A DNA stretch of 64,000 nucleotides from Candidatus Doudnabacteria bacterium (GTDB lineage: Bacteria; Patescibacteriota; Doudnabacteria; UBA920; 2-01-FULL-46-14), in NCBI GenBank assembly GCA_023246055.1, contig JAHFJD010000001.1, forward strand, positions 2,781-66,780. Direction: 5' to 3'. Shown here piece after piece: positions 34,799 to 49,447 of this stretch (position 1 is its first letter; each line of letters starts with the position of its first letter). Below the pieces are notes generated by a model. The model did not search any database. It had not been told where the DNA came from and saw only the letters and a list, made by a program, of their open reading frames with translations. Position numbers and translations under genes: made by a program.

Positions 34799-34800
34799 TC

Positions 34801-34880
34801 TACTACGAAATACGAAACGGTACGAACATACGAAAACGTACCTTTCGTACTTTCGTAAAAATTCGTAATTTCGTAGTATT
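34801..34880. repeat. TACGAA/TTCGTA-rich palindromic element (family 3), copy A, ends at ATG 34881
   Basis: tactacgaaatacgaaacggtacgaacatacgaaaacgtacctttcgtactttcgtaaaaattcgtaatttcgtagtatt; exact reverse complement of copy at 46097-46173. Confidence 0.8.
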
Positions 34881-35744
34881 ATGTATTTCTATATTTTTGA
34901 CGCGGGTAAAGACCGGGAGGTGAAAAATTTTGAGCGGATCCAAGGCCGACTCCTAAATTTACTCGCCGAACACCATATTGAAGGTGAAACCTACCGGGTG
35001 ACCTCGATCCGGACAGTGGAGCTGCTCGTAGATCAGGCGATTGGCCTTGAGGCCAAAACCGTGATTGTGGTGGGCTCGGATAGCACACTTAATCGCACTA
35101 TCAATAGCCTTGTTCGGAAAAACGTGGATATAACAGTAGGTTTTATTTCGCTTGATTCGAGTTCGCGCTTGGGCCAGATTTTCGGCATTACCGCCGACAT
35201 TGACCAATCAGTGCGCTCTCTGGCCGGCCGGCTTGTGGCCGAGCTCGATATCGGGGAAATCAATGAGCATTATTTTTTATCCAAAGTGGAACTAGGGGAG
35301 AATCAATTTTCGCAAATTGAACGAGGTTTTTTGGGGCTTACCGCAATGCGAAAATTTTTAAACCTCAAGCCCTTTGTGCTAAATCTGCGCCTTGAGGATT
35401 CCTATAATGTTTCGACGGAGGTGTTGGCGGCGCAGATTATCAATTGCCGCAACAATGAGGGCTGCAAGATGAAGCTTGGCAACCCCACTGACCGGCTGCT
35501 CGATATTTTGCTTTTAAATAAATTATCAGCAACTCAGATCATTCGATACCGGCGCGATTTGGAGGGTAGGTGTTTTGATAACCTGCCTGGTGCGACTATC
35601 ATGCATGCTAAAAAGATAGAAGTCCTTGGCCCGCGCAAACTGCCCCTGGCCATTGAAGGACAGGTTTATACGAAAGCGCCGGCTATGGTCAAAATCGCGA
35701 AACAAAAAATCAAGATGATTGTCGGCAAACCCCGGCAGTTTTAG
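34881..35744 (+). CDS. DAGK_cat/YegS-like lipid kinase family protein
   Basis: 287 aa; ...KTVIVVGSDSTLNRTINSL... resembles diacylglycerol-kinase catalytic domain (GGDGT-like motif degenerate). Confidence 0.5.
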   Translation: MYFYIFDAGKDREVKNFERIQGRLLNLLAEHHIEGETYRVTSIRTVELLVDQAIGLEAKTVIVVGSDSTLNRTINSLVRKNVDITVGFISLDSSSRLGQIFGITADIDQSVRSLAGRLVAELDIGEINEHYFLSKVELGENQFSQIERGFLGLTAMRKFLNLKPFVLNLRLEDSYNVSTEVLAAQIINCRNNEGCKMKLGNPTDRLLDILLLNKLSATQIIRYRRDLEGRCFDNLPGATIMHAKKIEVLGPRKLPLAIEGQVYTKAPAMVKIAKQKIKMIVGKPRQF

Positions 35745-35821
35745 AACTTTTTTCCCTCAGGCCTCGCCAAGCGCAGCGGGACGGGCAGGCGTGGGGAGGG
35801 TTAGGGAGAGGTCGAATAACT

Positions 35822-35861
35822 TATAACTCACAGGCTTCACGGCCGTGAAGCCTGTGAGTTA
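35822..35861. repeat. 40-bp perfect palindrome ATAACTCACAGGCTTCACGGCCGTGAAGCCTGTGAGTTAT
   Basis: Seen directly in convergent intergenic region. Confidence 0.85.
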
Positions 35862-35872
35862 TGTTAAATTTA

Positions 35873-35917
35873 GCAACAAAAAAAACCGGGCGATGAGAAT
35901 GCTCTCGCCTCGGTTTT
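35873..35917. terminator. Bidirectional rho-independent terminator
   Basis: AAAAAAAACCGGGCGATGAGAATGCTCTCGCCTCGGTTTTT. Confidence 0.6.
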
Positions 35918-35919
35918 TA

Positions 35920-36555
35920 TCAGGGAGTGTATGAAACACCCAAACTCGCTGCCTGCAATTTCTTGCCGTAGTTGTATTCGACGAAAATTGCGGTTTTTTT
36001 GATGGGCAACATCATGCCAAGCGGCACGGTTTTGGTGATCCTCGGGGGCGTGAACAGCTTTGTTGTTTTGTCCGGTCCGAAAGGAGCTAGAAATGAATAT
36101 CCAGAGTAAAACGTGAATGGCTTCTCTGCGATTTTCAGATTCTTGCTCACGATCGTGGAATTGAACCATAGCAGGTTCGAGGAATCTTCGCGTTTGGTCA
36201 GGCCGGTCGTGAAAAGGTTGAAGTTCGAAACCGCAACTCCACGATTCCACAGATTCACATTCGCGCCGACCGTGGCATTGATTTGCGACCGGCCAAACGC
36301 TGTGATAATACCAGCGCCCGCGTAAAGATCCACTCGACTGCCAACGCCGTACAAAATCTGCGTGTAGCCATAGTGCAGGGTAGTAAAGTCGTTCGCGATC
36401 AAGCCATTCGTGGCAACGAAAAAGGCAATTTTATCTTTGCCAATGGTTTCCGCTGTGGTGAGTGTTTGACCGAAGGCAGTGCATTTGCTCGACAGAATCA
36501 TCGTGAAGCCCATGGCGCTGACAAGCAAAAAGAAGTTTTTCCAAGTCCTTTGCAT
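35920..36555 (-). CDS. Hypothetical secreted protein (possible beta-barrel)
   Basis: 211 aa; signal-like N-terminus; alternating hydrophobic pattern; C-terminal aromatic. Confidence 0.45.
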   Translation of the reverse strand: MQRTWKNFFLLVSAMGFTMILSSKCTAFGQTLTTAETIGKDKIAFFVATNGLIANDFTTLHYGYTQILYGVGSRVDLYAGAGIITAFGRSQINATVGANVNLWNRGVAVSNFNLFTTGLTKREDSSNLLWFNSTIVSKNLKIAEKPFTFYSGYSFLAPFGPDKTTKLFTPPRITKTVPLGMMLPIKKTAIFVEYNYGKKLQAASLGVSYTP

Positions 36556-36589
36556 ATTTCCTCCATATTAGTTTTTGTTCAGTTCCTTT

Positions 36590-36619
36590 CAGACAACATT
36601 CACTGTTGAATATTGTCTG
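36590..36619. promoter_or_regulatory. 30-bp near-perfect palindrome (operator-like) upstream of 35920-36555 gene
   Basis: CAGACAACATTCACTGTTGAATATTGTCTG, 35-65 bp upstream of start codon. Confidence 0.4.
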
Positions 36620-36662
36620 GAAAAAATTCCCGTCTATTGTGTCCCGACGGGGAGGGAGATTG

Positions 36663-36914
36663 TCAGTCCTCCTCATATAGCACTAATTTTGGATGGTCAT
36701 GAATAAGCCGATTAAGCCTCTCAATTACCGCAGCTTTTTGATCGTCTTCTACATCGTCCACACAAAATACGGCTTCAACTACATCCTCGCCGCCCGCATA
36801 TCCAAGCTCGCCCAGTAGTAAGAAGAATTCCTTTTCAATTGCGTTCACCTCCGGCGCTTCGCCCATGGTAAAAAAGTCGTTATTCGCTGGTCTAAAACGC
36901 AAACAAATTTTCAT
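36663..36914 (-). CDS. Hypothetical small acidic protein
   Basis: 83 aa from MKICLRF with GGAGGA RBS; ORF table version extends upstream. Confidence 0.4.
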   Translation of the reverse strand: MKICLRFRPANNDFFTMGEAPEVNAIEKEFFLLLGELGYAGGEDVVEAVFCVDDVEDDQKAAVIERLNRLIHDHPKLVLYEED

Positions 36915-37085
36915 AATCCTCCAATTTGGTTCGATATTAGCCGGAGACATTTCCAGCGTAACGAGGAAGAATAGCATTATTTTTGTAGAATGTCCATGAT
37001 TATGACTTTTAAAATTGATAATTTGTGCCTTATTTAAGAGAAAATAGATTGATAGAATAATATTTGTCAGAAAAATTGACAAAAT

Positions 37086-37886
37086 ATGGAATTCAGATAT
37101 TCTGCAAATATGGATATATTAGAAGCTTTAGAAAAGATTGGATTAAAAGATAAACAGGCGGGAGTATATCTTGCTCTTTTAGAGCTGGGGACAGCAAGTG
37201 TGGAGTCTATAGCCAAAAAGGCAGGGACCAAACGGCCAACAACATATTTGATTCTCGATGAGTTGCAGAGTCGCGGACTCGTGAGCATTGTGCCGCGTGC
37301 GAAAAAGACCCTATATTCTGCCGAATCTCCTCAATTGATTTTGAGTGAGATCGGCCACAGGGAGGAGTTGCTAAAACGTTTTATGCCGAATCTGCTCGCT
37401 GTTTACAATACTCGAAAAGAAAAACCCCAAGTATTATTGTTTGAAGGCAAAGAGGGGGTGGGACAAGTGTATGACAAGATTTTTTCTTCTCCAGAGGTGC
37501 AGTTTTTTTCCACGATTCGGGACGTGTTTGTGATGTTTCCGGAGATGTCGAAACTTTTGAGCAGTTTGGTAAACGCGAAACAAATAAAAATTAGAGAAAT
37601 TTTAACTCAAACCCCGGCAGATTTGGAATACATCGGTAGGACGAAGCAAGGAGAACATTATCAAAGTCGACTAGCGCCAAAAAAATTTCCAGAATTTTTA
37701 TCTGACAGCGCCATTTTTGGTAATAGTGTGGCATTTTTTTCTTTCAAGCCCCAGGTTTTTGCCGTGCAAATAGACAGCAGGGAAATCAGCCAATCACTGA
37801 GAGTATTGTTTGATTTGGCGTGGTTGGCTGCAGAGCCTTATGAAAAAGTAATCCACTTGGCAAAGGGCCGAGAATCTGTAAAATAG
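37086..37886 (+). CDS. TrmB-family transcriptional regulator (second paralogue)
   Basis: MDILEALEKIGLKDKQAGVYLALLELGTASVESIAKKAG HTH + TrmB C-terminal domain. Confidence 0.7.
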   Translation: MEFRYSANMDILEALEKIGLKDKQAGVYLALLELGTASVESIAKKAGTKRPTTYLILDELQSRGLVSIVPRAKKTLYSAESPQLILSEIGHREELLKRFMPNLLAVYNTRKEKPQVLLFEGKEGVGQVYDKIFSSPEVQFFSTIRDVFVMFPEMSKLLSSLVNAKQIKIREILTQTPADLEYIGRTKQGEHYQSRLAPKKFPEFLSDSAIFGNSVAFFSFKPQVFAVQIDSREISQSLRVLFDLAWLAAEPYEKVIHLAKGRESVK

Positions 37887-37911
37887 GGAATTAGAAAGCT
37901 TCGCGGAGGAA

Positions 37912-38364
37912 TTGATGAACAGGAATCTAGTTGCCATGCGGCAATGGCCGCAGCGGATTCGCAAAGAGGCGAGTCAGGATTGGCTATGGAAAGCAACAGA
38001 AGCCCGATTCAAATTTGTGATCGGGTTGTCGTTGAGTTTGATGGCGTCATTCATTTTGTCAACTCTGCCTCAAAGGTGGGTGACATATACGATAGTTTTT
38101 GGCGGCGGCATACTCGTGGGCATTGTCCTAAGGGAAAAGCGGACCTGGTTTGTGCTAGGTGCCATTGTCGGCAGTGTCGATTTGCTTTTGGCAAGCCGAT
38201 TTGTTCTATCGTTATTGTACGTCGTAGGTTTGGTTTTTGCGACCAATGTTGTGGGTTTTGGCACGAGGTATCTCCGAATATTAATGTGCACTCACGATTT
38301 TCATGTCAATAAACGTCTGCCATACCGCAATGCCCTATCCCTAGCACGCACTTTGACGCACTGA
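37912..38364 (+). CDS. Hypothetical membrane protein
   Basis: 150 aa; 3-4 TM helices. Confidence 0.4.
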   Translation: MMNRNLVAMRQWPQRIRKEASQDWLWKATEARFKFVIGLSLSLMASFILSTLPQRWVTYTIVFGGGILVGIVLREKRTWFVLGAIVGSVDLLLASRFVLSLLYVVGLVFATNVVGFGTRYLRILMCTHDFHVNKRLPYRNALSLARTLTH

Positions 38365-38479
38365 AATGACCATAAGGATTCCTAAATGTGATGAAGACGG
38401 CAGGTCTTGGGATCAGCCGTCTTTTTATGGGCTGCCAGTTGCAAAAATTGAAAGAAAATGACATAATAGGTTCTAACTT

Positions 38480-40477
38480 ATGGATTTAAGTACTTTATCC
38501 CAGCAGCTGAATATGTCAGTGCAGGAACTGCGCGCGAAGATGCGAGTGGCCGGATTTCGTGTGTCGCTGAAAGCACGCAAGGTGGAGAACAGTCTCGCAA
38601 GAGATATTTACAAGAAGCTTTCCGGGGTTGTGCCAGAGGCAGAGCCGAAAGCAGTCAAAATCACAAAGATTAGTGTGCCGCCGTTTATTACGGTCAAAGA
38701 ATTGGCAGAAAAATTGCATGAGCCTGTCACTGCGGTGATCAAAAAACTCATTCAGAATGGAGTGATGGCGACAATCAACGAGGAGATAGATACAGAAACC
38801 GCTGCCATCATCGCGGCAGAGTATGGAGTTGAGGTCGAAGCAGAACAAGCCAGTGGAGAGAGCGTGAAACTGGGCCTTGGTTATGTATCTGAACAAATGG
38901 GCCGGGAAAACGCGACAGATCTCGAGACTCGCCCGCCGATTGTGGCTGTGATGGGACATGTTGATCATGGCAAGACCACTTTGCTTGATACTATCCGCAA
39001 AACCAAAGTGGCAGCCTCGGAAGCCGGTGCTATTACTCAGCACATTGGTGCGTATCAAATTGAGGTTCCGCAGGAACCGAAATCCCGAGGAGGCGGAGCC
39101 GAGCTCGGGATCCCCGCCTCCGCTGGGGATGATTTTACTGGACGTAAAATCACCTTTCTTGACACTCCGGGCCACGAAGCTTTTGCAGCAATGCGAGCTC
39201 GCGGCGCTAATGTCACAGACATCATTGTTCTAGTCGTGGCGGCAGACGATAGCGTGAAGCCGCAAACTTTGGAGGTTATCAATCGAGCCAAGCTGACCAA
39301 AACGCCAATGATAGTGGCGATCAACAAAGTTGACAAACCAGAAGCCAATCCGGAGCGAGTGAAAGCGGATTTGGTAAATCTCGGAGTAACCATCGAGGAG
39401 TGGGGTGGCGGAACGCCGGCTGTGAATATTTCTGCAAAAACCGGACTCGGCATTGAAAAACTTTTGGAAACTATTCTGCTGGTCGCAGAGGTTGAAGAAC
39501 TCAAAGCCAATCCCAAAGGCCAGACCCTGGGGACAGTAATCGAATCGCATCTGTCCAAAGGACAGGGGGCGGTGGCCACAGTCATCGTGCAAAACGGAAT
39601 TTTGCGAAATGGCGACAACGTGATGGTGGGGAGCACTCACGGCCGGGTAAGGAGCATGGAAGATGCAGCCGGTAAAAGGGTGAAAGAGGCCGGGCCAGCT
39701 CTGCCTGTGGTTATTTCTGGACTCTCAGACCTACCCGAAGTCGGCGATATTTTGCGCGTGGCCCTGACACTCGAAGAGGCCAGAGCTGAAGCCATTGCGC
39801 TCGCGAAACTCGAGCGCGCCAAGCGGCTCTTGAGCCGCAGCGAGCTCAAACCTGATCCATCGACGCGCGAGCTCAAGCTCATCTTGCGTGCTGACATGGC
39901 AGGCAGTCTCGGGGCGATTACTGATGCTCTGGGGAAGCTTGGCACAGAAGAGGTGAAGGTGAATATTGTTGACCAGAAAGTGTCCGAGATTACAGAATCA
40001 GACATTCTCCTCGCGGAAAATACTGGGTCGCCGATCATCGGATTTCACACGAGGTTTACTCCGGGAGCCGCGAAACTAGCCAAGCAGAAAAATATCACAG
40101 TGGATATCTATGAAGTGATCTATGAACTCATTGAGGACGTGACATCAGCCCTTCTCCGGATGATGCCCATGGTGATTGTGGAAACAGTTTTGGGCAAGGC
40201 CAAAATCAAGGCCGTGTTCCGGACCGAAAAAGACGGTGGCATAGTCGGTGGCGAGGTGGCTGATGGCAAGATTGTAGACAAGAAAAAATTCCGCATCATG
40301 CGCGAGCAGCAATTGGTTGGCGAGGGGAAAATCGAAGAGCTGCAGCAGAACAAGGTCGAAGTCGGAGAGGTGGCTGTCGGTCGGGAATTTGGCCTGAAGA
40401 TTCGGTCAACAGTCCCCGTTAAGAGCGGTGATGTGCTGGAAATTTACGATGAGAGTGTGAAAAAGAAAGGCACGTAG
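38480..40477 (+). CDS. infB: Translation initiation factor IF-2
   Basis: 665 aa; GTPase G1-G4 motifs (GHVDHGKTT, DTPGH, NKVD), IF-2 C-terminal domains. Confidence 0.95.
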   Translation: MDLSTLSQQLNMSVQELRAKMRVAGFRVSLKARKVENSLARDIYKKLSGVVPEAEPKAVKITKISVPPFITVKELAEKLHEPVTAVIKKLIQNGVMATINEEIDTETAAIIAAEYGVEVEAEQASGESVKLGLGYVSEQMGRENATDLETRPPIVAVMGHVDHGKTTLLDTIRKTKVAASEAGAITQHIGAYQIEVPQEPKSRGGGAELGIPASAGDDFTGRKITFLDTPGHEAFAAMRARGANVTDIIVLVVAADDSVKPQTLEVINRAKLTKTPMIVAINKVDKPEANPERVKADLVNLGVTIEEWGGGTPAVNISAKTGLGIEKLLETILLVAEVEELKANPKGQTLGTVIESHLSKGQGAVATVIVQNGILRNGDNVMVGSTHGRVRSMEDAAGKRVKEAGPALPVVISGLSDLPEVGDILRVALTLEEARAEAIALAKLERAKRLLSRSELKPDPSTRELKLILRADMAGSLGAITDALGKLGTEEVKVNIVDQKVSEITESDILLAENTGSPIIGFHTRFTPGAAKLAKQKNITVDIYEVIYELIEDVTSALLRMMPMVIVETVLGKAKIKAVFRTEKDGGIVGGEVADGKIVDKKKFRIMREQQLVGEGKIEELQQNKVEVGEVAVGREFGLKIRSTVPVKSGDVLEIYDESVKKKGT

Positions 40478-40561
40478 CGATCCCAATCTACGAATGACAT
40501 ACTAATGATACGAATGCATTCGAAACATTGGAATGAAGATTAGAGTCATTAGAATCGCCAC

Positions 40562-40912
40562 ATGAGCACACGACAAGAGAAGGTCAATTCATTGATCCAG
40601 CGGCTGGTCAGTGAGTATCTGGTAGCCGAGCGTTTTGAAGGCATCACCGGACTTTTAACTATCACTGCCGTGGGTGTGTCCGCGGATTTGGAACATGCCA
40701 AAATATTTTTTTCCAGCCTCGGGCAAGATCAAACAGAGGTTTTGAAAATTTTGCGTGAGCATATCTACGAGATTCAAGGCATGCTTTATAATCATCTGCA
40801 GATGAAAAAAATTCCGCGCATTGTTTTTGTGCCTGACTCCTCTGGAGCACATGCTGGGAGGATTAATCAGATTTTAAATGAATTGGCCGATGACCATACC
40901 GGTGCGCAGTGA
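40562..40912 (+). CDS. rbfA: Ribosome-binding factor A
   Basis: 116 aa; RbfA KH-like fold; canonical position after infB. Confidence 0.85.
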   Translation: MSTRQEKVNSLIQRLVSEYLVAERFEGITGLLTITAVGVSADLEHAKIFFSSLGQDQTEVLKILREHIYEIQGMLYNHLQMKKIPRIVFVPDSSGAHAGRINQILNELADDHTGAQ

Positions 40913-41864
40913 TTTGCAAAAACAGTTTGCAGCCGCCAGGGAGCTTGTGAGGGGTTACCTGCGGTTTATTGTGATTTCTCATGAATATACGGATGGGGAT
41001 GATTTGGGATCCCTACTCGCTCTGGCTCGGGTTCTAGAAGCTGAGGGCAAAGTGGTGGCCAGAGTGGCTTTTGGCGGGATGCCGGAAAATCTGCTGTTTA
41101 TGCCGGGGCACAGTGAGTTGCAAAGCGCGTTGCCTCATGATTTTCAAGAGTATGATTGTTTGATTACATTGGGCTGCGGGAAACTCGATCGCGCGGGTTT
41201 TCCGGCCTTGCAGAACTGGTCCAAGCCAATTTTGAATATTGATCACCACCATGACACTCAAATGTTTGGCACGGTGAATGTCTGGGATGAAAAACGGGCG
41301 GCCAATTGTGAGCTTGTGTACGTGATGCTCAAAGATTGGGGAGTGGCGATAGATAAAGTTGTTGCCCTGAATTTGCTCACCGGAATCTTCACAGACACGG
41401 GCGGTTTCAGACATGCCAATGTCACGAGCGATACTCTGGAAATCGCTGCGGAATTGTTGCGTCGCGGGGCGCGGCTGGATCTCATTTCGCGTTTTACAAT
41501 GTCTCGCAAGGATTTGCCAAAACTGCGGGTTTGGGCCATGGCCCTCGAACACGCGCGTTTCGACGAGAAGCGCAAGGTTGTATATACTGTAGTTACGGCA
41601 GAAGATTTGGAAAAAGCCGGAGCCAGAGAAGAGGACCTTGAGGGTGTGGCCGAGCTTCTGAACACCATCCCGGAAGCGAAATTTTCTATGCTCTTAAAGC
41701 AGCGGGGGGGTGAGGTAAAAGGGAGCTTGAGATCAGAGCCGCATAAAGGTGTGGATGTCTCCGAGATCGCGAGATCTTTTGGCGGCGGCGGTCACAAACT
41801 CGCCGCGGGATTCAAATTTGACGGGACGATCGAAAAGACTGAATCAGGTTGGCGAATCTCCTAG
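40878..41864 (+). CDS. DHH/DHHA1 phosphoesterase (NrnA-like nanoRNase/pAp phosphatase)
   Basis: ISHEYTDGDDLGS, NIDHHHD, GGGGHKLAAG (DHHA1) motifs. Confidence 0.8.
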   Translation: MNWPMTIPVRSDLQKQFAAARELVRGYLRFIVISHEYTDGDDLGSLLALARVLEAEGKVVARVAFGGMPENLLFMPGHSELQSALPHDFQEYDCLITLGCGKLDRAGFPALQNWSKPILNIDHHHDTQMFGTVNVWDEKRAANCELVYVMLKDWGVAIDKVVALNLLTGIFTDTGGFRHANVTSDTLEIAAELLRRGARLDLISRFTMSRKDLPKLRVWAMALEHARFDEKRKVVYTVVTAEDLEKAGAREEDLEGVAELLNTIPEAKFSMLLKQRGGEVKGSLRSEPHKGVDVSEIARSFGGGGHKLAAGFKFDGTIEKTESGWRIS

Positions 41865-41947: not shown

Positions 41948-42451
41948 ATGACGACTGTCAAAGACATCATGACTAAAAATGTAATCTTCTGCACACCGTA
42001 TGATTCCATCCGAGATGCAGCGCGGTTGATGTTTTTAAATGCGCTGACCGGCCTGCCAGTAGTTGATGAAGAGAGCAAGGTCATGGGTATCATCACCGAG
42101 GTTGACATTGTGAAGCTTGAGGAGCCAGTGCATATCCCGAAAATGCTAGCTATCCTCGGTAGTTTCGTGTATTTGGACAATCCGATAAACGGTGATGAGA
42201 TTGAAAAACAGCTAGAGGTTTTAACAGCCACCAAGGTGAACGAAGTGATGACCACTGACGTGGTTAGTGTTGGGCCGGATGATTCGGTTGAAACTCTAGC
42301 GGAAATTTTTTTGCACAAAAAAGTCAATCCCGTTCCGGTGGTGGAGGCTGGCAAACTCGTTGGCATCGTGAGCCGCGCTGACATTGTGAAACTCATTGCC
42401 GGTGACAAGGAATTGGCAAGACAAGAATGGAAAGCGCTCGTGAAGAAATAA
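41948..42451 (+). CDS. CBS-domain pair protein
   Basis: 167 aa; two CBS motifs (VVDEESKVMGIITEVDIV; PVVEAGKLVGIVSRADIV). Confidence 0.8.
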   Translation: MTTVKDIMTKNVIFCTPYDSIRDAARLMFLNALTGLPVVDEESKVMGIITEVDIVKLEEPVHIPKMLAILGSFVYLDNPINGDEIEKQLEVLTATKVNEVMTTDVVSVGPDDSVETLAEIFLHKKVNPVPVVEAGKLVGIVSRADIVKLIAGDKELARQEWKALVKK

Positions 42452-42471
42452 TCGCAACCGCTCTCGCAAAC

Positions 42472-42505
42472 AAAAAATCCCGATCAGTTTGGGATTTTTT
42501 GTTTG
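42472..42505. terminator. Bidirectional rho-independent terminator
   Basis: AAAAAATCCCGATCAGTTTGGGATTTTTTG. Confidence 0.6.
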
Positions 42506-42509
42506 GGCT

Positions 42510-43235
42510 TTATTTACTTATATCTTCTGCAATCTTCCACCTCTGTTCAAATAACTCATCCATAAACGTTGCAAACGGCGCGTAATCAAATCTCATACCA
42601 ATGGCTTCTTCCTTATGTTTCGGATCGTAGGAGGTAAAATAAACTATACGGTGATCATACACAAAAATTCGCGCTTCCATATTGGGATAGTATTTCACCT
42701 CAATGCCCGCCTTTTCCCAACTGCGCAATTTTTCCACACTCACTTCTGTTCGATTTTGAACCAACCACCTCACTTTGACACCTCGTTCTACGGCTCGTTG
42801 GTTTACCAAAAGAGTTTCAGCAGGTAGCTCCAGTCCAGAGACAATCAAGTTTATGCTTTCTTTGGCAGTCTTGGCATCTTGTTCCGTCATTTTTATAATC
42901 TGCTTTCTTTTCTGTACAAAAACCAGTTTTAGTAAATCGCGATGATTTGTAACCTTTCTTTCACTTCCAAAAGTGTCTTGAAAGTTTTGTCGGATGAGGG
43001 AAGAAAAAAAATCTACTCCTTCAGAGGCAGACCTGGCTTTAAACTTTATAGGGTAACTACGCACCTCTTCGACTAGTCCAGCTTGCATCAATTGTTTTAC
43101 TGCTCTGTATGCTGCATTAGGAAAAACCCGCAGGTCTTTACCAATTTCTTTTGCAGACATTGATCGGCCCTTCTCCAGCAGACGATATATGCTGGCCGCT
43201 TGCGGTGAGATTAATTTCAACAATAGATTAGTCAT
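42510..43235 (-). CDS. TrmB-like HTH regulator (third paralogue)
   Basis: N-terminal wHTH AASIYRLLEKGRSMSAKEIGKDL...LMQAGLVEE; C-terminal TrmB-like domain. Confidence 0.55.
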   Translation of the reverse strand: MTNLLLKLISPQAASIYRLLEKGRSMSAKEIGKDLRVFPNAAYRAVKQLMQAGLVEEVRSYPIKFKARSASEGVDFFSSLIRQNFQDTFGSERKVTNHRDLLKLVFVQKRKQIIKMTEQDAKTAKESINLIVSGLELPAETLLVNQRAVERGVKVRWLVQNRTEVSVEKLRSWEKAGIEVKYYPNMEARIFVYDHRIVYFTSYDPKHKEEAIGMRFDYAPFATFMDELFEQRWKIAEDISK

Positions 43236-43310
43236 AAATTGATTTTAACGTACTTTGGTTAAAATAGCAAGTCTGATATTTTTAACCGTTCCAATTGAAA
43301 AGGAGGACAA

Positions 43311-43973
43311 ATGTTAAAACAGCTAGGGGTCAGCATATTCCTGCTCTTTTTTGTTTCCACACCATCTCACGCCCAAGGCGTAAAAATGGGTAAAATCACC
43401 TTGACCGGAGAAGTCGAGTTTACGCAAGATCAAAAAGGTCGCCAGACTTATGATCTTTATATGTTCGGCCACACTCGCAATATCGAGTTTCTGGGACGTG
43501 CAACAGACGTAGAAAATAGCATCCGTCGCATGGAGCTTTCGCTTGGCAAGAGCTTCGCGCTGTTTCCCAACCAAGACAAGAAGCCGCGGATTGTGATAAT
43601 CGGATACGCTGGCCTGACCACTGATGGAGCAATCTACACGCCCGTCGTTGTGGTATTTAACTTCCGCTGTCTGAATGGAGCTTATATTGCTGACCCTAAG
43701 TTTTACTACTACCACGGGCAGCCGGAGTATCTCCACAGCAATACGCTTTATCAAAAAAGCTATATAGACTTAACAAAGGGTGGCGGATGGCAATTTCGGT
43801 GGGAGCGATTGCAAGCTGTAGGAAACCTGACAATCTTTAACCGCTTCGGAATTGAGCGCCGCATCTGGGTTAGAAATGAGACCCTAGGAAAAAATAGCCA
43901 CTTTCATATCTCCCCATTCGTGGATACGGCAAACAAGCAGGTTGGGTTCTATACCGGCTTCCGATGGCAATAG
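43311..43973 (+). CDS. Hypothetical secreted protein
   Basis: 220 aa; signal peptide ending HAQG; aromatic C-terminus (FRWQ). Confidence 0.45.
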   Translation: MLKQLGVSIFLLFFVSTPSHAQGVKMGKITLTGEVEFTQDQKGRQTYDLYMFGHTRNIEFLGRATDVENSIRRMELSLGKSFALFPNQDKKPRIVIIGYAGLTTDGAIYTPVVVVFNFRCLNGAYIADPKFYYYHGQPEYLHSNTLYQKSYIDLTKGGGWQFRWERLQAVGNLTIFNRFGIERRIWVRNETLGKNSHFHISPFVDTANKQVGFYTGFRWQ

Positions 43974-44154
43974 AACAAAGCGCACGCCCCACCTAACCAG
44001 TGGGACACGGCGCTTTCTTTTTTTATCCGAAATTTTGCTCAGGCTTCGGCGCGTAGCCGGCGCGTAGCCTTCGCATTTAATTATTTTTATTTTAATCCAA
44101 TCTTCGGCAAACCTGCTTCTGGCGTAAGCCAGCCGTAGCCTTGGCGAAGGCTGG

Positions 44155-44225
44155 AGCGGGTAACGGGAATTGAACCCGTTTCTCTACCTTGGCAAGGTAG
44201 CATAATACCGTTATACGATACCCGC
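44155..44225 (-). tRNA. tRNA-Gly (anticodon GCC), U73 discriminator, CCA encoded
   Basis: GCGGGTATCGTATAACGGTATTATGCTACCTTGCCAAGGTAGAGAAACGGGTTCAATTCCCGTTACCCGCT(CCA). Confidence 0.85.
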
Positions 44226-44250
44226 ATGATGGAATTTAAGAGAAAAACTC

Positions 44251-44501
44251 TCAATCATGGAGGCCGAGTCGTTGCGTGTCTTTTTCGGTCCACCTGGCTT
44301 GCGTTTCTATCATGCTCTTTAGGGTTTTGGGCGGAAATGTGTCAGCCAAGTGGTGAAAAGAAACAGTGACCTGCCTACCATCGGAATGTTTGTATAAGGG
44401 TGACTGCCTTTTTGTCTTTTAAGAAGAAACCCGTCCTGTTGTAGGGCGCGGACAAGCTTGCGAGTATTGAGATTACGGAGTCTGACATAATCAATGCCCA
44501 T
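44251..44501 (-). pseudogene. hicA: HicA toxin gene disrupted by a -1 frameshift in a C/G run near 44398-44405
   Basis: Frame 1: MGIDYVRLRNLNTRKLVRALQQDGFLLKRQKGSH then nonsense; frame shifted by one continues ...LYKHSDGRQVTVSFHHLADTFPPKTLKSMIETQARW, matching HicA C-terminus. Confidence 0.6.
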
Positions 44502-44502
44502 T

Positions 44503-44754
44503 CTACACAGTCACAGCAACTGCTGGCTCGTTTGAAACCATTACACTCTCTGGAATTTTCTGGCCTTCTTCTAACAACTCCTCGATTACCATTTGGGCAA
44601 CCTCTTGAATATTGCGAATTGCTTCTTCTTTGCTATGACCCCAGGTGGCCGCGCCTTTGTTTTCCAACTCCGGAAGGTAAGCCCGCCAGCCGTCGCCATC
44701 AGGCTCAACCACCACCCGAAAGACATAAGATTTAGTTTTTGCTAAATATTTCAT
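44503..44754 (-). CDS. hicB: HicB-family antitoxin
   Basis: 83 aa; YVFRVVVEPDGDGWRAYLPELENKGAATWGHSKEEAIRNIQE HicB/UPF0150 fold. Confidence 0.75.
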   Translation of the reverse strand: MKYLAKTKSYVFRVVVEPDGDGWRAYLPELENKGAATWGHSKEEAIRNIQEVAQMVIEELLEEGQKIPESVMVSNEPAVAVTV

Positions 44755-44825
44755 AGGCTAAATTATACATCAAAGTGGGAGCGCTGGGAATCCCTGCCCG
44801 CAGTGCTACGCATCAGAGACTAATG

Positions 44826-44898
44826 TGGGTCCGGCGCGAGTCGAACGCGCGACCGTTGGCTTAAAAGGCCACTGCTCTACCAGCTGAGCTACGGACCC
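44826..44898 (-). tRNA. tRNA-Lys (anticodon UUU)
   Basis: GGGTCCGTAGCTCAGCTGGTAGAGCAGTGGCCTTTTAAGCCAACGGTCGCGCGTTCGACTCGCGCCGGACCCA; loop CTTTTAA. Confidence 0.85.
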
Positions 44899-44947
44899 AT
44901 AAATTTACTTGATAATTATACAAAATTTAACAAATCTTTTCCAGGCC

Positions 44948-46096
44948 TCAAAAGCTGTCTTTTATTTTTCCCCAGAAACTTTTGTTCACGTTCACTGTTT
45001 CACCAGACTCCTCGGCCAAAGTTTTGAGGAGTTCTTTTTCTTTTTTCGTGAGTTTCTGCGGGGTGACTATGCGCACAGTGACCAAATGATCGCCTCGCCG
45101 TGTTTTGTGGTCTAGGTGTGGCACCCCTTTCCCAGCGAGGCGCAAAATTTTTCCTGATTGAATTCCCGCTGGAATTTTTAACATGACCGGCCCGTCTACA
45201 GTAGCGACCTCGGTTTCCCCTCCGAGAGTGGCCCCATAAAAACTGATCGGGATCTCGCTGCGGATATCAAAGCCGTCCCGGATAAATTCCGGATGCGCTT
45301 TGACCCGAATCTGAATATACAGATCGCCGGGTTTGGTGCCGCGGTATCCCATTTCTCCTTCTCCGGTGAGGCGAATCCGCTGCCCCGAATCTATGCCGGC
45401 TGGAATGTTTATGGTAATGGTTTTTGTTTGACGTTTGATCCCCGCGCCTACGCATTCACGGCAAGGTTTTTCCGGGATTTTCCCTGTCCCATCACAACGG
45501 TCACAAGTTTGAGCTGATTGCATATTGCCGAGGATGGTGCGGCGGTGAGTGATAATCTGCCCTTGGCCATGGCATTTGGGGCAGGTGATGACCTCGGTTC
45601 CGGGTTCTGCACCTTGGCCTTTGCAATGCTGGCAAGCATCCTTTTTTTCAAGATTAATTTTCTTTTCTAACCCAGTCACGCTTTCCAGAAATTCGATATC
45701 AAGGTTCATCTCCAGGTCTATGCCCTGGGGTTTGCGGGTTTTGCGTCCCCCGCCGAAAATATCAGAGAAGATATCAGAAAAATCCGCGCTAAAAGTTGAT
45801 CCGTTTCCCGCGGAAAACCCGCCAAAGTCGAAGCCCTGAGAAAAATCCCCGGTAAATCCGCCAAAGCCGCTGCCTTGTCCGGCTTGATCAAAGGTCTGCC
45901 CGAACCGGTCATACTGCGCGCGCTTCGCGTCATCAGAGAGAGCCTCATAGGCCTCATTGACTTCCTTAAATTTTTGCGCCTCGCCGCCACCCTTGTCAGG
46001 GTGATACTCGTGCGCGAGCCGCCGATAGGCGCGTTTAATCTCGTCTTTGGACGCGGTTTTGGGAACCCCTAGAATTTGATAAAAGTCCTTAGCCAT
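44948..46096 (-). CDS. dnaJ: Chaperone DnaJ
   Basis: 382 aa; J-domain HPD, G/F region, 4x CxxCxGxG zinc finger. Confidence 0.95.
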   Translation of the reverse strand: MAKDFYQILGVPKTASKDEIKRAYRRLAHEYHPDKGGGEAQKFKEVNEAYEALSDDAKRAQYDRFGQTFDQAGQGSGFGGFTGDFSQGFDFGGFSAGNGSTFSADFSDIFSDIFGGGRKTRKPQGIDLEMNLDIEFLESVTGLEKKINLEKKDACQHCKGQGAEPGTEVITCPKCHGQGQIITHRRTILGNMQSAQTCDRCDGTGKIPEKPCRECVGAGIKRQTKTITINIPAGIDSGQRIRLTGEGEMGYRGTKPGDLYIQIRVKAHPEFIRDGFDIRSEIPISFYGATLGGETEVATVDGPVMLKIPAGIQSGKILRLAGKGVPHLDHKTRRGDHLVTVRIVTPQKLTKKEKELLKTLAEESGETVNVNKSFWGKIKDSF

Positions 46097-46173
46097 ACTA
46101 CGAAATTACGAATTTTTACGAAAGTACGAAAGGTACGTTTTCGTATGTTCGTACCGTTTCGTATTTCGTAGTA
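46097..46173. repeat. TACGAA-rich element (family 3), copy C, between dnaK stop and dnaJ ATG; identical to reverse complement of copy A
   Basis: actacgaaattacgaatttttacgaaagtacgaaaggtacgttttcgtatgttcgtaccgtttcgtatttcgtagtag. Confidence 0.8.
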
Positions 46174-46174
46174 G

Positions 46175-48025
46175 TTATTTTTTTTCTTTAAACTCCGCAT
46201 CTTCGGGTTTGTCTTTCTTCTCTTCTGTTTTCCCGTCTGCTGACTTCTGATTTCCGTCTCCCGTCTGTCCGCCAGGGGCGGACTGATACATTTGCGCGCC
46301 AACCTTTTGGATTTCCGCGCTGATTTCGTCCATTTGTTTTTTGATGGGCTCAATGTCACTGCCGTCTTTGACTTTTTTGAGCTCCGCGACCTTGGCTTCG
46401 AGGTTCGTTCTGGTTGCTACATCTATTTTATCGCCTCCATCCTTGAGAGTTTTTTCCACGACTGTGATGAGTCCGTCAGCTTGGTTGCGGATGTCCACTA
46501 CTTCGCGGCGTTTGCGGTCTTCCTCGGCATGCGCTTCCGCTTCTTTTTTCATGCGCTCTATCTCGTCTTTGGAAAGGTTGGAAGACCCGGAAATCGTGAT
46601 GTGCTGCTCTTTGCTGGTGGCCTTATCGCGAGCCGTGACCTTGAGGATGCCGTTGGCATCAATATCAAAAGTCACTTCAACCTGGGGCACACCGCGCGGT
46701 GCTGGCGGCAAGCCGTCGAGAATAAATCTCCCTAGAGATTTGTTGTCTGCGGCCATGGGCCGCTCTCCTTGCAGAACATGGATTTCGACAGAGGTCTGAT
46801 TGTCTCCGGCTGTGGAAAATGTCTGGGATTTGGCGGTGGGGATAGTGGTATTGCGTTCGATGAGAGGAGTAGCCACGCTGCCCAGAGTTTCTATTCCCAG
46901 AGTCAGGGGAGTAACATCTAAAAGCAAGACGTCTTTGACTTCACCGCCCAGGACCCCGGCCTGGATGGCTGCTCCCTTGGCGACCGCCTCCATCGGATCA
47001 ATACCGCGTTCCACTTGTTTGCCAATGTAGTCCTCTACATTTTTTTGCACTATTGGCATGCGAGTCGGACCGCCGACCATGATGATTTTATCAATATCTT
47101 TCGGCGACAATTTGGCATCAGTTAGCGCCTGTTCCAGAGAAGTTCGGGTGCGTTCCACGATCGGTCGGACGAGCTCCTCGAGCTTCGCGCGGGTGATTTT
47201 TAGGCTAAGATGTTTGGGGCCTGCGCTATCCGCGGTGATGAATGGCAGGTTGATTTCCGTTTCCAGAGTGGTGGAGAGCTCGATCTTGGCTTTTTCCGCA
47301 GCTTCCTTGAGGCGATTAAATGCCATTTTATCCTGCTTGATGTCGATTCCGGATTCTTTTTTAAATTCGTCAGCGATATATTCCATGATCCGGTTATCCA
47401 TGTCTGTGCCGCCCAAATGCGTATCGCCCGAGGTGGATACTACTTCAAACACACCTTGACCGAAATCCATGATGGTGACGTCAAGCGTGCCGCCGCCGAA
47501 ATCGAACACCAGGATTTTTTGTTCCGCACCTCCTTTATCCAGACCGTAAGCCAGAGCCGCGGCGGTTGGCTCGTTGATGATCCGGATGATTTCTAGGCCA
47601 GCGATTTCTCCGGCATTTTTTGTGGCTTGCCGCTGGGCATCGTCAAAATACGCCGGCACAGTGACCACGGCTTTGGAGATCGGTTCGCCCAGGTAGGCCT
47701 CCGCATCCTTTTTGATTTTCTGCAAGATAAAGGCGGAAATTTGTTCCGGAGTATATTCTTTGTCTTTCATTTTCACTTTATCCTTGGTTCCCATTTTACG
47801 TTTCACGGAATAGACTGTGCCTTCCGGATTGGTGACAGCTTGGCGCCTGGCTGGCTCACCCACCAGAAGCTCGCCGTCTTTTGTCATGGCCACGTAGGAT
47901 GGAAAGGCTTTGCCGCCACCGACCGTGGTGCCTTCTGCAGAGGGAATGATGACCGGCTTGCCGCCTTCGAGCACCGCCGCCGCGCTGTTAGATGTCCCGA
48001 GATCGATTCCTATAATTTTTGGCAT
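46175..48025 (-). CDS. dnaK: Chaperone DnaK (Hsp70)
   Basis: 616 aa; [23 protein letters not shown] Hsp70 signatures. Confidence 0.95.
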
Positions 48026-48091
48026 ATAGATTTTCCTTACTTTAATTATTCTTATAGATCCCCGCCTCCGCAGGGATGAAAGTCGCTAGTT

Positions 48092-48550
48092 TTACTTCAC
48101 GACTTTCACCTTAGCAGGTCTGATGACTTTATTGTTAAGTTTATAGCCTGGTTGCACCTCTTCGATTATCGTTCCCGATTCTCCGTCTCCAGCTGTCATC
48201 TCTACGGCTTCATGAAGCTGAAAATCGAATCTCTCTCCCACGGTCTTGATTTTTTCTATTCCCATTTCGAGAAGCGTTTTCTCCAGTTGCTGCACGATTT
48301 TTATGACTCCTTGCGACCAAGTTTCAAATTGTTGGTCCTGGGGAGAATTTTTCAGCGCCCGCTCCAGACTCTCCAGTGTCGGCAGCATTTTTACTACCGT
48401 AACCTCTTGCGCAAACTGGATGAGTTCCTGATTTTCTTTGTCGCGCCGCTTTTTGTAATTCTCAAAATCCGCGGCAGTCCGTTTCCAATTGTTGAGGTAT
48501 TCTTCGGCTTTTTGCTTGAATTCTTCTAATTCACTATTTGTTTCTTCCAT
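48092..48550 (-). CDS. grpE: Nucleotide exchange factor GrpE
   Basis: 152 aa; GrpE coiled-coil + beta domain. Confidence 0.9.
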   Translation of the reverse strand: MEETNSELEEFKQKAEEYLNNWKRTAADFENYKKRRDKENQELIQFAQEVTVVKMLPTLESLERALKNSPQDQQFETWSQGVIKIVQQLEKTLLEMGIEKIKTVGERFDFQLHEAVEMTAGDGESGTIIEEVQPGYKLNNKVIRPAKVKVVK

Positions 48551-48560
48551 ATCATTCTTC

Positions 48561-48620
48561 TGTCATTCCCGCGGAAGCGGGAATCCAGTTTCTGGATCCC
48601 AAATCAAGTTTGGGATGACA
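48561..48620. repeat. MITE-like element (family 2) with TGTCATTCC/GGGATGACA terminal inverted repeats, 11 nt upstream of grpE ATG
   Basis: tgtcattcccgcggaagcgggaatccagtttctggatcccaaatcaagtttgggatgaca. Confidence 0.6.
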
Positions 48621-49356
48621 ATACACTGAAATTAATTATTATTGCGGCTCCCAACCCAGATGCTAACATTTTCTTCACATACTCCAGCAGGGAAATATTC
48701 CTCGCGTATTTCATACGTTTCGGTCCAATGATGCCGATCACGCCTTTTTCGCCACGTGGCAAATTGACCCGGGTGACGACAAGGCTAAAATCTTTGGCCA
48801 GTGGCACTGGCGCTTCGCGGCCGATAAATGCTTTGACCTCTTGCAAATCTTTTTTTGCGAGCATGCTTCCATATTCAGAGACGTCATCAAGGAATCTCGC
48901 GATTTCTTTGACTTCGGCTGTTGACACATTCTCATCAATCACATTCGAGAGGCCAGTGGTGCTGGCATTTCCTGGCAACAGAGCAAATGCTGCGCCGTCA
49001 GCTTCACGCGCAAGCAATTTTGTGAGGCTCTTGCCAAGCTCTATATACTGGCGCTGCAGGTCCCGCAAATCCGCATTGAGCTTTTGCTGCTCGAGTCGGG
49101 ACAATTCCAGATGTTTCATGAGTTTATTTATAAAGAACCGGAAACCCTCATCTGTCGGGATGCGCCCGGCGCTAGTATGCGGCTGATAAATATAGCCAGA
49201 CTTCTCCAAAGCCTGCATTTCGTTTCGGATCGTGGCCGCGCTCACTGAAAAACCATATTTTTCAGAGAGTTCTACAGACCCGACTGGCTGGCCGGTAGCG
49301 GAATAGTCCTTGACAATCGCAGCCAGGATTTTCGCTTGTCGTTGGGTGATTTCCAT
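48604..49356 (-). CDS. hrcA: Heat-inducible transcription repressor HrcA
   Basis: 250 aa; N-terminal wHTH; HrcA family; CIRCE upstream. Confidence 0.9.
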   Translation of the reverse strand: MEITQRQAKILAAIVKDYSATGQPVGSVELSEKYGFSVSAATIRNEMQALEKSGYIYQPHTSAGRIPTDEGFRFFINKLMKHLELSRLEQQKLNADLRDLQRQYIELGKSLTKLLAREADGAAFALLPGNASTTGLSNVIDENVSTAEVKEIARFLDDVSEYGSMLAKKDLQEVKAFIGREAPVPLAKDFSLVVTRVNLPRGEKGVIGIIGPKRMKYARNISLLEYVKKMLASGLGAAIIINFSVLSSQT

Positions 49357-49438
49357 ATACTACGAAATACGAATCTCTACGAAAATACGAATAAAATTCA
49401 TGTTTCGTAATTTCGCATCCCTTTCGTATTTCGTAGTA
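49357..49438. repeat. TACGAA-rich element (family 3), copy D, abutting hrcA ATG
   Basis: atactacgaaatacgaatctctacgaaaatacgaataaaattcatgtttcgtaatttcgcatccctttcgtatttcgtagta. Confidence 0.7.
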
Positions 49439-49447
49439 ATTATAAAT

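Follow-up and report, generated by a model that had tools for sequence, protein, structure and literature searches.

Four genes in the window, the 64,000-nucleotide stretch of a Candidatus Doudnabacteria contig analysed here, start at the end of a palindromic element of 80-85 nt. What is this element, and why does it end at start codons? We suggest, with a probability of roughly 60%, that the window elements are the ORF-less members of a Patescibacteria-wide inverted-repeat family whose full-length form carries a GxxExxY gene. The element itself is probably a small, mobile DNA element.

The copies in the window

Each element has two inverted arms with four TACGAA boxes in each. An arm is made of two tandem units of about 18 bp, giving four TACnAA boxes at fixed spacings of 1-2, 4 and 2 nt (TACGAA-N1-2-TACGAA-N4-TACGAA-N2-TACGAA). 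The termini are invariant in all four copies (TACTACGAA.TACGAA ... ATTTCGTAGTAT), with TACTACGAA...TTCGTAGTA as terminal inverted repeats. The first-pass annotation had listed four copies, and all of them are present, with small corrections to their boundaries. Copy A (34800..34879, +, the strand of its downstream gene) lies between the stop codon of a bactofilin gene (34796-34798) and the ATG of a DAGK-like lipid kinase gene (34881), with TACGAA at 34804, 34811, 34821 and 34829 in the 5' arm and TTCGTA at 34844, 34852, 34862 and 34870 in the 3' arm. Copy B (41865..41949, +) lies between the stop of a DHH/DHHA1 gene (41862-41864) and the ATG of a CBS-pair gene (41948). Its 5' arm is intact (boxes at 41868, 41875, 41885 and 41893) and its 3' arm is half decayed (TTTGTA at 41914, TTCGTA at 41922, TTAGTA at 41932 and TTCGTA at 41940). 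Copy C (46095..46174, -) runs from the first base after the dnaK stop (46175-46177) through the AT of the dnaJ ATG (46096-46094). Copy D (49357..49438, -), one box of which reads TGCGAA, makes up approximately the whole leader from the hrcA promoter to the hrcA ATG (49356). This promoter (49439..49474, -) is TTGACA-17-TATAAT (49467..49439), agrees with the consensus at 12 of 12 positions and overlaps a CIRCE operator, TTAGCACTT-N9-GAGTGCTAA (49474..48). Since this perfect promoter is directly upstream of D, copy D is expected to be transcribed.

In support of the earlier claim that the element adjoins start codons, each copy ends at an ATG or 1 nt before it: the terminal AT of B and C is the AT of the ATG, the ATG follows directly in D, and it lies 1 nt further on in A. 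The far ends of A, B and C are 0-1 nt past the preceding gene's stop codon. Copies A and C, at unrelated loci and previously described as identical over 78 nt, are in fact identical over 80 (80/80), and the likeness runs on, more weakly, 10 nt into the upstream flank (90 nt at 96%). The degenerate stretch noted ahead of rbfA proves to be a fifth, decayed copy (40478..40561, +) that takes up the space between the infB stop and the rbfA ATG. It has the boxes TACGAA, TACTAA and TACGAA, then TTCGAA, TTGGAA, TTAGAG and TTAGAA, and its decayed 3' arm now resembles a leaderless-type promoter (TTGGAA-16-TAGAAT-N6-ATG). Moreover, a solo half-element (7655..7694, -), which shares 88% identity with the rbfA copy's 5' half, fills the space from a PBP1 stop to the ATG of an O-antigen-ligase-like gene.

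Both the sequence and the fold of the copies depart from chance. TTTCGTAGTA, with at most one mismatch, has 10 matches compared to 2.2 expected, a number that 0 of 100 shuffles reach, and TACGAA occurs 48 times in the window compared to 23.5 expected, 29 of the 48 inside the four elements. The predicted RNA hairpins have energies of -30.3 to -35.8 kcal/mol (z-scores -3.7 to -7.0). In the read-through RNA the unpaired probability of the 12 nt before the AUG is 0.09-0.19, which agrees with the long hairpin at the start codon that had been proposed. In an Rfam 15 scan the gathering score was reached by tRNAs only and by no element, and at E up to 5 the elements gave chance miRNA-like matches only, far below threshold. 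We found no description of the element in Rfam or in the searchable literature.

Arms and GxxExxY genes in other genomes

A pattern of 18 bases covering three boxes was run on public genomes and metagenomes. It matched at least 117 loci in genomes and at least 120 in metagenomes, with about 17 chance matches expected. The arm syntax is thus present in more than 230 loci, mostly in Patescibacteria and some in Bacteroidota, and 69 of the 117 genome loci bear CPR-lineage labels (among the matches listed). Note that the fourth box and the G that follows it, which the pattern does not force, are almost always there. Among 2.9 million viral contigs there was one chance match only, which gives no hint of a viral vehicle.

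As in the window, the arms of other genomes are not random with respect to gene starts: among the matches listed, an ATG lies within -2..15 nt of 31% of 242 arms, compared to 7% of random positions. Of the paired elements, 75 occupy co-directional gaps, 3 convergent and 4 divergent ones (matches listed; baseline 1263/212/228); they fill the stop-to-start gap, with medians of 106 nt for the gap, 82 nt for the element and 19 nt for what is left over. The outer arm end adjoins starts in 27 cases and stops in 22, about evenly among the matches listed; the inner end seldom abuts a gene. About 40% of the arms have no partner. The downstream genes in other genomes, again among the matches listed, encode ribosomal proteins in 18 of 91 cases, chaperone or heat-shock proteins in 5 of 91 and varied housekeeping functions in the rest, and the arms often lie within ribosomal-protein operons. 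Mismatches in the boxes cluster at one position, which gives TACnAA. Compensatory changes account for 6 of 87 changed pairs, and the 4-nt spacers show no more complementarity between the two arms than shuffled pairs do. Judged from these alignments, the constraint is sequence-specific, acting on the boxes, and not mere pairing.

GxxExxY proteins form a large family of unknown function. In at least nine of the scanned loci a GxxExxY gene (about 130 aa, PF13366) is bracketed by the same two arms, the inner arm ends being 2-70 nt from the ORF, and 9-12 of the 15 GxxExxY genes in the scanned loci have the F arm on the left and the R arm on the right. GxxExxY/PF13366 is the sole recurrent gene between arms. 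A second sample consisted of eight CPR homologues of GxxExxY, picked by protein similarity and contig size only. Arms were present on both sides in five of them, partially on both sides in one, on one side in one and as decayed traces in one; that is, 6-7 of the 8 loci are bracketed. In addition, ORF-less and ORF-bearing copies of one genome have arm alleles in common, and one GxxExxY cassette has perfect inverted repeats (32/32). We found no description of the association between arms and GxxExxY in the literature. The AlphaFold2 model of GxxExxY has a pLDDT of 92, the residues D74, E84, K86, Q98 and Y102 are invariant, and the best structural matches are DNA nucleases. On this model GxxExxY is a predicted minimal Cas4/RecB-like PD-(D/E)XK nuclease with its catalytic residues intact.

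The ORF-bearing relatives are found at S7/EF-G (in four lineages), at L5/S14, at ATP synthase, in a type IV secretion operon and at HisK/RR. No GxxExxY gene was found in the 64-kb window, nor any remnant of its ORF in the loops of the ORF-less copies. Since the same arms bracket the GxxExxY gene in the full-length members, we read the window copies as ORF-less, MITE-like relatives of the cassette; they could be either a deletion derivative of it or a landing pad for the gene.

Mobility, function and rival readings

The identity between copies had been taken as a sign of copying or mobility, and sites without the element bear this out. In the Doudnabacteria relatives L119, L120 and L122 the hrcA leader has no element, and TATAAT is only 11-12 nt from the hrcA ATG; in L120 the dnaK-dnaJ gap has none either and measures 12 nt. 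Copy A carries with it the last five codons of dnaK, from the flank of copy C. Near-identical sets of copies occupy unrelated loci within single genomes (L042/L001, L131, L023 and L061), and two strains differ by an 18-nt indel that equals one two-box unit. All four window copies read TA-CTACGAA...TTCGTAG-TA. The TA could belong to the repeat itself, no consistent target-site duplication was found in the other genomes examined, and a TA-duplication model leads to an implausible ancestral hrcA leader.

We propose that the window elements would stand to the GxxExxY cassette as MITEs stand to an insertion sequence. The TACGAA boxes would be the recognition sites of the GxxExxY nuclease, and spread may occur by nuclease-triggered copying or gene conversion, which fits the dnaK codons carried in A. 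Having no promoter of its own, the cassette would survive only as a co-directional insert inside operons, and in compact genomes insertion would be tolerated only in the short space, a few nucleotides long, that separates a stop from the start after it. Insertion restricted to these junctions would leave a stop codon on one side (A, B and C), an ATG on the other and no Shine-Dalgarno sequence between them. The adjacency to the ATG would thus arise because the element inserted in few-base junctions of a genome in which Shine-Dalgarno sequences are often absent. After transcription, the arms would pair into a hairpin of -30 to -36 kcal/mol that brings stop and start codons together. This hairpin probably enforces translational coupling, the downstream AUG depending on an upstream ribosome that opens the base of the stem; at hrcA, initiation would depend instead on a transcript starting inside the first box.

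A broader proposal is more tentative, and we hold it at somewhat less than even odds. GxxExxY proteins may be the box-specific nucleases of an unrecognised class of minimal mobile cassettes (two four-box TACnAA arms with or without one 130-aa PD-(D/E)XK gene), settled at stop-start junctions in essential operons, across the Patescibacteria and in parts of the Bacteroidota, whose ORF-less hairpins shape the co-translation or mRNA processing of their neighbours.

The element is kept at orthologous sites in five species pairs, with 93-100% identity between the copies and 70-80% in their flanks, and 91% of paired elements lie in co-directional gaps, compared to 74% of all gaps. Such persistence and such a preference would equally fit a host function. 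The copies within a genome also have one orientation relative to transcription, and the 12 nt ahead of the AUG are hidden in the hairpin. They could be host-serving intercistronic RNA elements, not selfish ones, whose hairpin acts as a signal for processing, stability or coupling and is kept by selection; GxxExxY would then be a dedicated, possibly RNA-cutting nuclease, and its own gene inside such a hairpin would form a feedback loop. We consider this unlikely, at perhaps one chance in five, because changes that keep a G.U pair on the sense strand are not in excess (17 vs 20), compensatory changes are few, either arm has decayed in sister species (L002, L172) and many arms are unpartnered. 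Moreover, identical copies sit at unrelated loci, close relatives do without the element, and the GxxExxY structure best matches DNA nucleases.

The constraint on the boxes is symmetric between strands and leaves one position free, and box spacing is fixed while spacer sequence varies. These features, the enrichment before ribosomal-protein and other highly expressed genes, and the position of copy D immediately 3' of the hrcA -10 box could also describe a DNA operator array, in which a conserved oligomeric regulator, bound to the four-plus-four TACnAA boxes, tunes or blocks transcription across growth-gene operon junctions. We give this little credence: no regulon is conserved, the same junction does not recur more often than expected by chance for the approximately 90 junctions sampled, half of the arms face stop codons, and the bracketing of GxxExxY genes by inner arm ends would be left unexplained.

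The first-pass annotation had also read TAGTAT as a -10 box. This does not hold, since TAGTAT abuts or overlaps the ATG, and at most a weaker variant may apply, to B and C only, with TAATTT at -12 (TTCGTA-16-TAATTT-N6-ATG). In a promoter module for leaderless mRNAs, TTCGTA would be a weak -35, TAATTT the -10, and transcription would start on the A of the ATG. Of 44 genes of this genome, 8 do have TAnnnT at -12 relative to the ATG, compared to 0.55 expected, and the decayed rbfA copy has the same layout. However, B and C match the consensus at only 7 of 12 positions and were not listed by the promoter scan, the spacing is 9 nt in A, and a perfect sigma-70 promoter precedes D. Across the other genomes, 2 to 15 nt separate arm and ATG, and the box junction is TAATTC. 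The location of elements inside ribosomal-protein operons, the stop codons faced by half of the arms and the antisense transcription that the second arm would fire into the upstream gene make such a module very improbable. Finally, the idea first favoured, an RNA thermometer for heat-shock genes, deserves almost no weight: two of the four window copies do precede hrcA and dnaJ, with the AUG at the stem base, but only 5 of the 91 downstream genes (matches listed) are heat-shock genes, stems of this stability, far above that of known RNA thermometers, would not melt in a physiological temperature shift, and hrcA already has CIRCE control.

Comparison with known systems

Integron attC sites are likewise imperfect palindromes that sit precisely in the gap separating one ORF's stop from the following ORF's start. 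We rejected this assignment: the flanking genes are syntenic core genes (hrcA-grpE-dnaK-dnaJ, infB-rbfA), there is no adjacent integrase, and the cores differ. REP/BIME sequences with their RAYT (Y1) are extragenic palindromes in operons, with CTAC...GTAG ends also seen in the window copies, and have a single associated gene flanked by repeats. REPs, however, are species-specific and GC-rich, with a preference for gene 3' ends, whereas here one box syntax extends across phyla; this candidate was also rejected, since no RAYT-like ORF was seen between arms and the GxxExxY fold differs.

The intervening sequences of 23S rRNA resemble the element in that inverted flanks form a transcribed stem, from which an optional small ORF is looped out and which is tolerated where RNA cutting is harmless, but those lie in rRNA helices and the element in mRNA junctions. 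Free-standing homing genes (phage T4 seg and mob) and the I-Ssp6803I-type PD-(D/E)XK enzymes share a small nuclease gene between conserved genes, a likeness that comes from the gene sites of the GxxExxY-bearing relatives only, with cleavage of empty sites putative here. The co-copying of flanks, as between A and C, is a further but only suggestive resemblance, and the known homing genes have neither inverted-repeat arms nor ORF-less multicopy derivatives.

Finally, MITEs such as Correia/NEMIS of Neisseria differ in several respects. The partner here is a 130-aa PD-(D/E)XK nuclease, while the parents of MITEs encode a DDE transposase; the element has four 6-bp boxes per end and no clear target-site duplication; and it is found almost only at co-directional stop-to-start junctions. 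Nevertheless, the window copies, like MITEs, are short and non-coding, have terminal inverted repeats and occur as near-identical copies. As with Correia elements, they lie beside genes, with which they would be co-transcribed, and form long predicted hairpins in the mRNA. Just as MITEs have parent insertion sequences, the window copies have a longer relative whose ends are the same and which carries a gene, here that of the putative mobilising nuclease GxxExxY.

The window copies and their surroundings

The first-pass annotation had described four palindromic elements, and all four were confirmed: copies A (34800-34879, plus strand), B (41865-41949, plus), C (46095-46174, minus) and D (49357-49438, minus). 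On the strand of the downstream gene, the 5' half reads TACTACGAA-N-TACGAA-N4-5-TACGAA-N2-TACGAA, followed by a loop of 9-13 nt and by the 3' half, TTCGTA-N2-TTCGTA-N4-TTCGTA-N1-2-TTCGTAGTAT. In copy B the 5' arm is perfect and the 3' arm is half-decayed, and copy D carries a single TGCGAA box. The window has 48 TACGAA boxes (23.5 expected), 29 of them within the four elements, and the element terminus, TTTCGTAGTA, has 10 matches against 2.2 expected. Predicted hairpin energies of the copies lie between -30.3 and -35.8 kcal/mol (z-scores -3.7 to -7.0).

Pfam places copy A between a bactofilin and a DAGK-like kinase, B between DHH/DHHA1 and a CBS pair, and C between dnaK and dnaJ; copy D lies between a 12/12 sigma-70 promoter overlapping CIRCE and hrcA, and this promoter shows that it is transcribed. 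In A-C, 0-1 nt separates the upstream stop codon from the element, and, as had been proposed, all four elements run up to the ATG or stop 1 nt short of it. The degenerate stretch reported before rbfA proved to be a decayed fifth copy (40478-40561), spanning the interval from the infB stop to the rbfA ATG. Apart from this copy and a solo half-element (7655-7694), which occupies another stop-to-start gap, a relaxed search of the window found no further full copies.

The suggestion that identity between copies reflects copying also held. Copies A (34800-34879) and C (46095-46174, minus strand) match at 80/80 nt and share an upstream flank at unrelated genes: the last five codons of bactofilin, ACG GAG TCT AAA GAA TAA, align in frame with the dnaK terminus, GCG GAG TTT AAA GAA AAA AAA TAA. 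From the sequence, this shared flank looks like co-conversion during recombinational copying and not like clean cut-and-paste. The window DnaJ is at most 70% identical to any public protein, the best named matches being Candidatus Doudnabacteria, which assigns the window to a Patescibacteria (CPR) genome. Three related Doudnabacteria have the same CIRCE/promoter with the hrcA ATG only 11-12 nt past TATAAT; in one, the dnaK-dnaJ gap is 12 nt and contains an AGGA motif, and two others have different CGAA-type palindromes before dnaJ. These comparisons show that the element is absent from the same sites in relatives. Phage carriage was not found: 2.9 million viral contigs gave one chance match, inside coding sequence.

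The elements had also been read as promoter modules giving leaderless mRNAs. This fails as a general reading; for copies B and C alone it stays a minor candidate. An ordinary promoter was rejected because the match is weak, the spacing is inconsistent and the elements lie inside operons. TAnnnT stands exactly 12 nt 5' of the ATG in 8/44 window genes (0.55 expected), and a Shine-Dalgarno-like tetramer precedes only about one third of them. Leaderless transcripts and SD-free junctions are thus normal here, so the missing Shine-Dalgarno before the four element ATGs is not special. The leaderless signature is found, for example, at the gene starts 16928, 23978, 28599, 43235 and 40562. TTGACA-17-TATAAT-like promoters with the -10 box exactly 6 nt from the ATG are present at 8/44 window genes.

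Other repeats occur in the window. A GC-rich hairpin repeat, (G)ATTCCCGC-GGAr-GCGGGAAT(C), occurs in the two remaining internal junctions of the hrcA-grpE-dnaK-dnaJ operon with one copy each (48026-48091 and 48551-48603), so that every junction of this operon holds some palindromic repeat; a third copy (18023-18050) lies within a likely spurious ORF start. A second family of GC-rich hairpins, ACCCCCTCT..ATCTCCCCCTC-loop-GAGGGGGAGA, has at least seven copies (188-224, 1287-1323, 6325-6400, 12817-12853, 26705-26741, 30386-30422 and 56062-56150), mainly at gene ends and in one case immediately 5' of an ATG (12829); these could be terminators or a further junction repeat. Shortly past a gene ending at 26068, the 34-nt sequence GGTCTGGTGCCCGAGCAGTTAGGGAGCGGTCTGC is present as two exact direct copies (26119-26152 and 26171-26204, 52 nt apart). 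An RHH_1 antitoxin and PIN_3 toxin pair (49589-50231, minus strand) is immediately upstream of the hrcA promoter. Finally, a large serine recombinase gene (58830-60389, minus strand; Resolvase, Recombinase and Zn_ribbon_recom domains), the adjoining tRNA gene (58879-58962) and partial tRNA-like direct repeats (58788-58823 and 58869-58904, with 26742-26835 listed under the same feature) resemble an element that has integrated at a tRNA site.

Distribution, anatomy and position of the arm family

A pattern of three boxes with constant spacers, specifying 18 bases and expected about 17 times by chance in 596 Gb, recovered at least 117 loci from public genomes; a scan of metagenomes gave at least 120. 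Among the matches listed, 69 of the 117 genome loci belong to MAGs labelled CPR (Patescibacteria), among them Nomura-, Moran-, Uhr-, Falkow-, Doudna- and Saccharibacteria and Parcubacteria; Bacteroidota account for about 27 and Omnitrophota for 2. The arm consensus is aTTCGTA-ya-TTCGTA-nnaa-TTCGTA-a-TTCGTA-G, in which the fourth box and the trailing G are near-universal though absent from the search pattern. Roughly 60% of arms are accompanied by an inverted partner no more than 100 nt away, and about 40% are single. No strain-level insertion polymorphism was found among near-identical locus pairs beyond one 18-nt arm indel between two strains; this indel amounts to one two-box unit, so the arm consists of two tandem units.

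The same CPR operons contain sister repeats built from other xxCGAA boxes (ATGCGAA x4, AACGAAT/ATTCGTT and TCCGAAT/ATTCGGA), likewise placed stop-to-start: in locus L001 in the gaps before genes at 4123 and 6346 (minus strand), in L131 after tuf and before secY, and at L119 9925-10000 and L122 9889-10000. The TACGAA family may be one among several related box families. Some Bacteroidota MAGs carry long tandem box arrays (L078 3421-3647, L114 1264-1515, L103 252-517), either as 60-bp six-box units repeated four times or as a (TACGAAA)n microsatellite, and the L114 array adjoins a GxxExxY gene. Two Moranbacteria have a reverse-oriented arm 3 nt 5' of an ATG (L013 3439-3469, L076 7097-7127), 100% conserved between species about 80% identical; here translation of the upstream ORF may continue across the boxes, TACGAA encoding Tyr-Glu.

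The placement next to start codons extends to copies elsewhere: 76/242 arms (31%) have an ATG at -2 to 15 nt from the outer, gene-facing end, compared with 7% for random positions in the same loci, counting only ATGs whose ORF reaches 50 aa or more. Downstream lie housekeeping genes unrelated to one another, with 18/91 encoding ribosomal proteins, often inside S10/spc operons, and others encoding EF-G, SecA, GAPDH, DnaE, LigA, FtsW and MurF. Chaperone or heat-shock genes make up only 5/91 (GroEL, GroES, DnaJ, HrcA and HtpX), and this census rejects the heat-shock thermosensor once proposed from the window's two heat-shock targets.

Of the gaps that hold paired elements, 75 are co-directional, 3 convergent and 4 divergent (baseline 1263/212/228; chi-square about 13). 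The elements fill these gaps: the median gap is 106 nt, the median element 82 nt and the median remainder 19 nt. The outer end of single arms (box 4 plus G) abuts a start 27 times and a stop 22 times; the inner end abuts a gene only about 10 times. Contact with the start codon is therefore half of a wider rule, shown here for the family, by which outer ends abut both flanking genes. Pairing of the arms with 16S rRNA as an alternative ribosome-binding site was dropped as a reading: none of the loci contains a 16S sequence, and the arms face stops as often as starts. Note that element-free junctions of the L131 ribosomal-protein operon measure 3-18 nt and have no Shine-Dalgarno; they are so short that an inserted element necessarily ends beside the ATG.

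Across 106 paired elements, box deviations cluster at a single base pair, that of the G in TACGAA (the C in TTCGTA), and the effective box is TACnAA. Selection for RNA structure was rejected: the same elements show no sense-RNA excess of G.U-keeping changes (sense 17, antisense 20), only 6/87 changed pairs are compensated, and the 4-nt spacers of opposite arms do not exceed shuffled pairs in complementarity (32% vs 35%), whereas the 2-nt spacers do so somewhat (58% vs 41%). Elements persist at orthologous sites in five species pairs with flanks 70-80% identical; they are 93-100% identical in three pairs, and in one the opposite arms have decayed. Together, the box-focused changes, the few compensations, the spacer results and this persistence point to sequence-specific recognition of the boxes, and not to selection for pairing alone.

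Association of the arms with GxxExxY nuclease genes

GxxExxY (PF13366/TIGR04256) is a widespread nuclease family that has been listed as 'unknown' (PMC3424549). When arm pairs in element orientation (F...R), 150-3500 nt apart, were searched, at least seven loci enclosed an ORF of about 130 aa, identified by Pfam and NCBIfam as PDDEXK_3 (PF13366)/GxxExxY (TIGR04256) with E-values of 1e-19 to 1e-32. In the scanned loci, 9/15 GxxExxY genes are bracketed by arms in a strict test and 12/15 by eye, always with the F arm on the left and the R arm on the right and with inner ends 2-70 nt from the ORF, the reverse of the orientation around host genes.

Because these loci had been pre-selected for arms, an unbiased test was run on eight CPR homologues obtained by protein search and chosen on similarity and contig size only. 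Five have arms on both sides (L245, L252, L254, L260 and L261), L251 has partial arms on both sides, L248 a 5' arm alone and L256 decayed arm traces alone. All eight sit co-directionally within operons. The association of the arms with GxxExxY genes is shown. A cassette occupies the S7|EF-G junction in four different lineages, ORF-less and ORF-bearing copies of one genome have spacer alleles in common (L074), and the inverted repeats of the L205 cassette are perfect (32/32).

Besides GxxExxY, only host genes lie between arms, and no classical transposase parent was found there. The loops of ORF-less copies hold no GxxExxY ORF remnants (best E-value 0.12), and sequence search found no solved GxxExxY structure. 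A GIY-YIG nuclease gene between grpE and dnaK (L119 6817-7122) and 23S_rRNA_IVP (four-helix-bundle) genes near GxxExxY cassettes (L251 330-692, L254 3343-3792) are further selfish-looking small genes in CPR operon junctions.

Proposed mechanism and known systems

We propose that the boxes are recognition sites of the GxxExxY nuclease and that copies spread through nuclease-triggered repair. A promoter-less cassette would require co-directional operon sites, which would account for the junction bias and the consistent orientation. The hairpin had been suggested to sequester the start codon, and folding agrees: the 12 nt 5' of the AUG are predicted to be buried in the stem of read-through RNA (unpaired probability 0.09-0.19). 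A ribosome terminating 0-6 nt short of the stem base would open the stem, and the SD-less downstream gene would then be translated via coupling. An hrcA transcript starting about 7 nt past TATAAT would miss the outermost stem strand, with predicted unpaired probabilities of about 0.9 for A and U, and on it the AUG would be accessible.

This proposal gives PF13366/TIGR04256 'GxxExxY' a role that can be tested, the first for this family, and a candidate target in DNA (or RNA). Very compact Patescibacteria genomes tolerate the repeat family in their most essential operons (among them ribosomal-protein, str and dnaK); the hairpin may allow this by bringing stop and start codons close together again. 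For annotation, the arms can be mistaken for leaders, promoters or 'riboswitch-like' hairpins, and they can be read through as spurious C-terminal extensions. Some Saccharibacteria are now culturable and genetically tractable, and since Saccharibacteria MAGs are among the carriers, the proposed mechanism is directly testable.

No Rfam family matched at gathering or permissive thresholds, and full-text literature searches found neither a paper tying TACGAA/TTCGTA arrays, MITEs or REPs to CPR nor a GxxExxY function. Although neither likeness amounts to a full match, the element behaves like a MITE/REP-type repeat on the one hand and like a free-standing homing-endonuclease cassette on the other.
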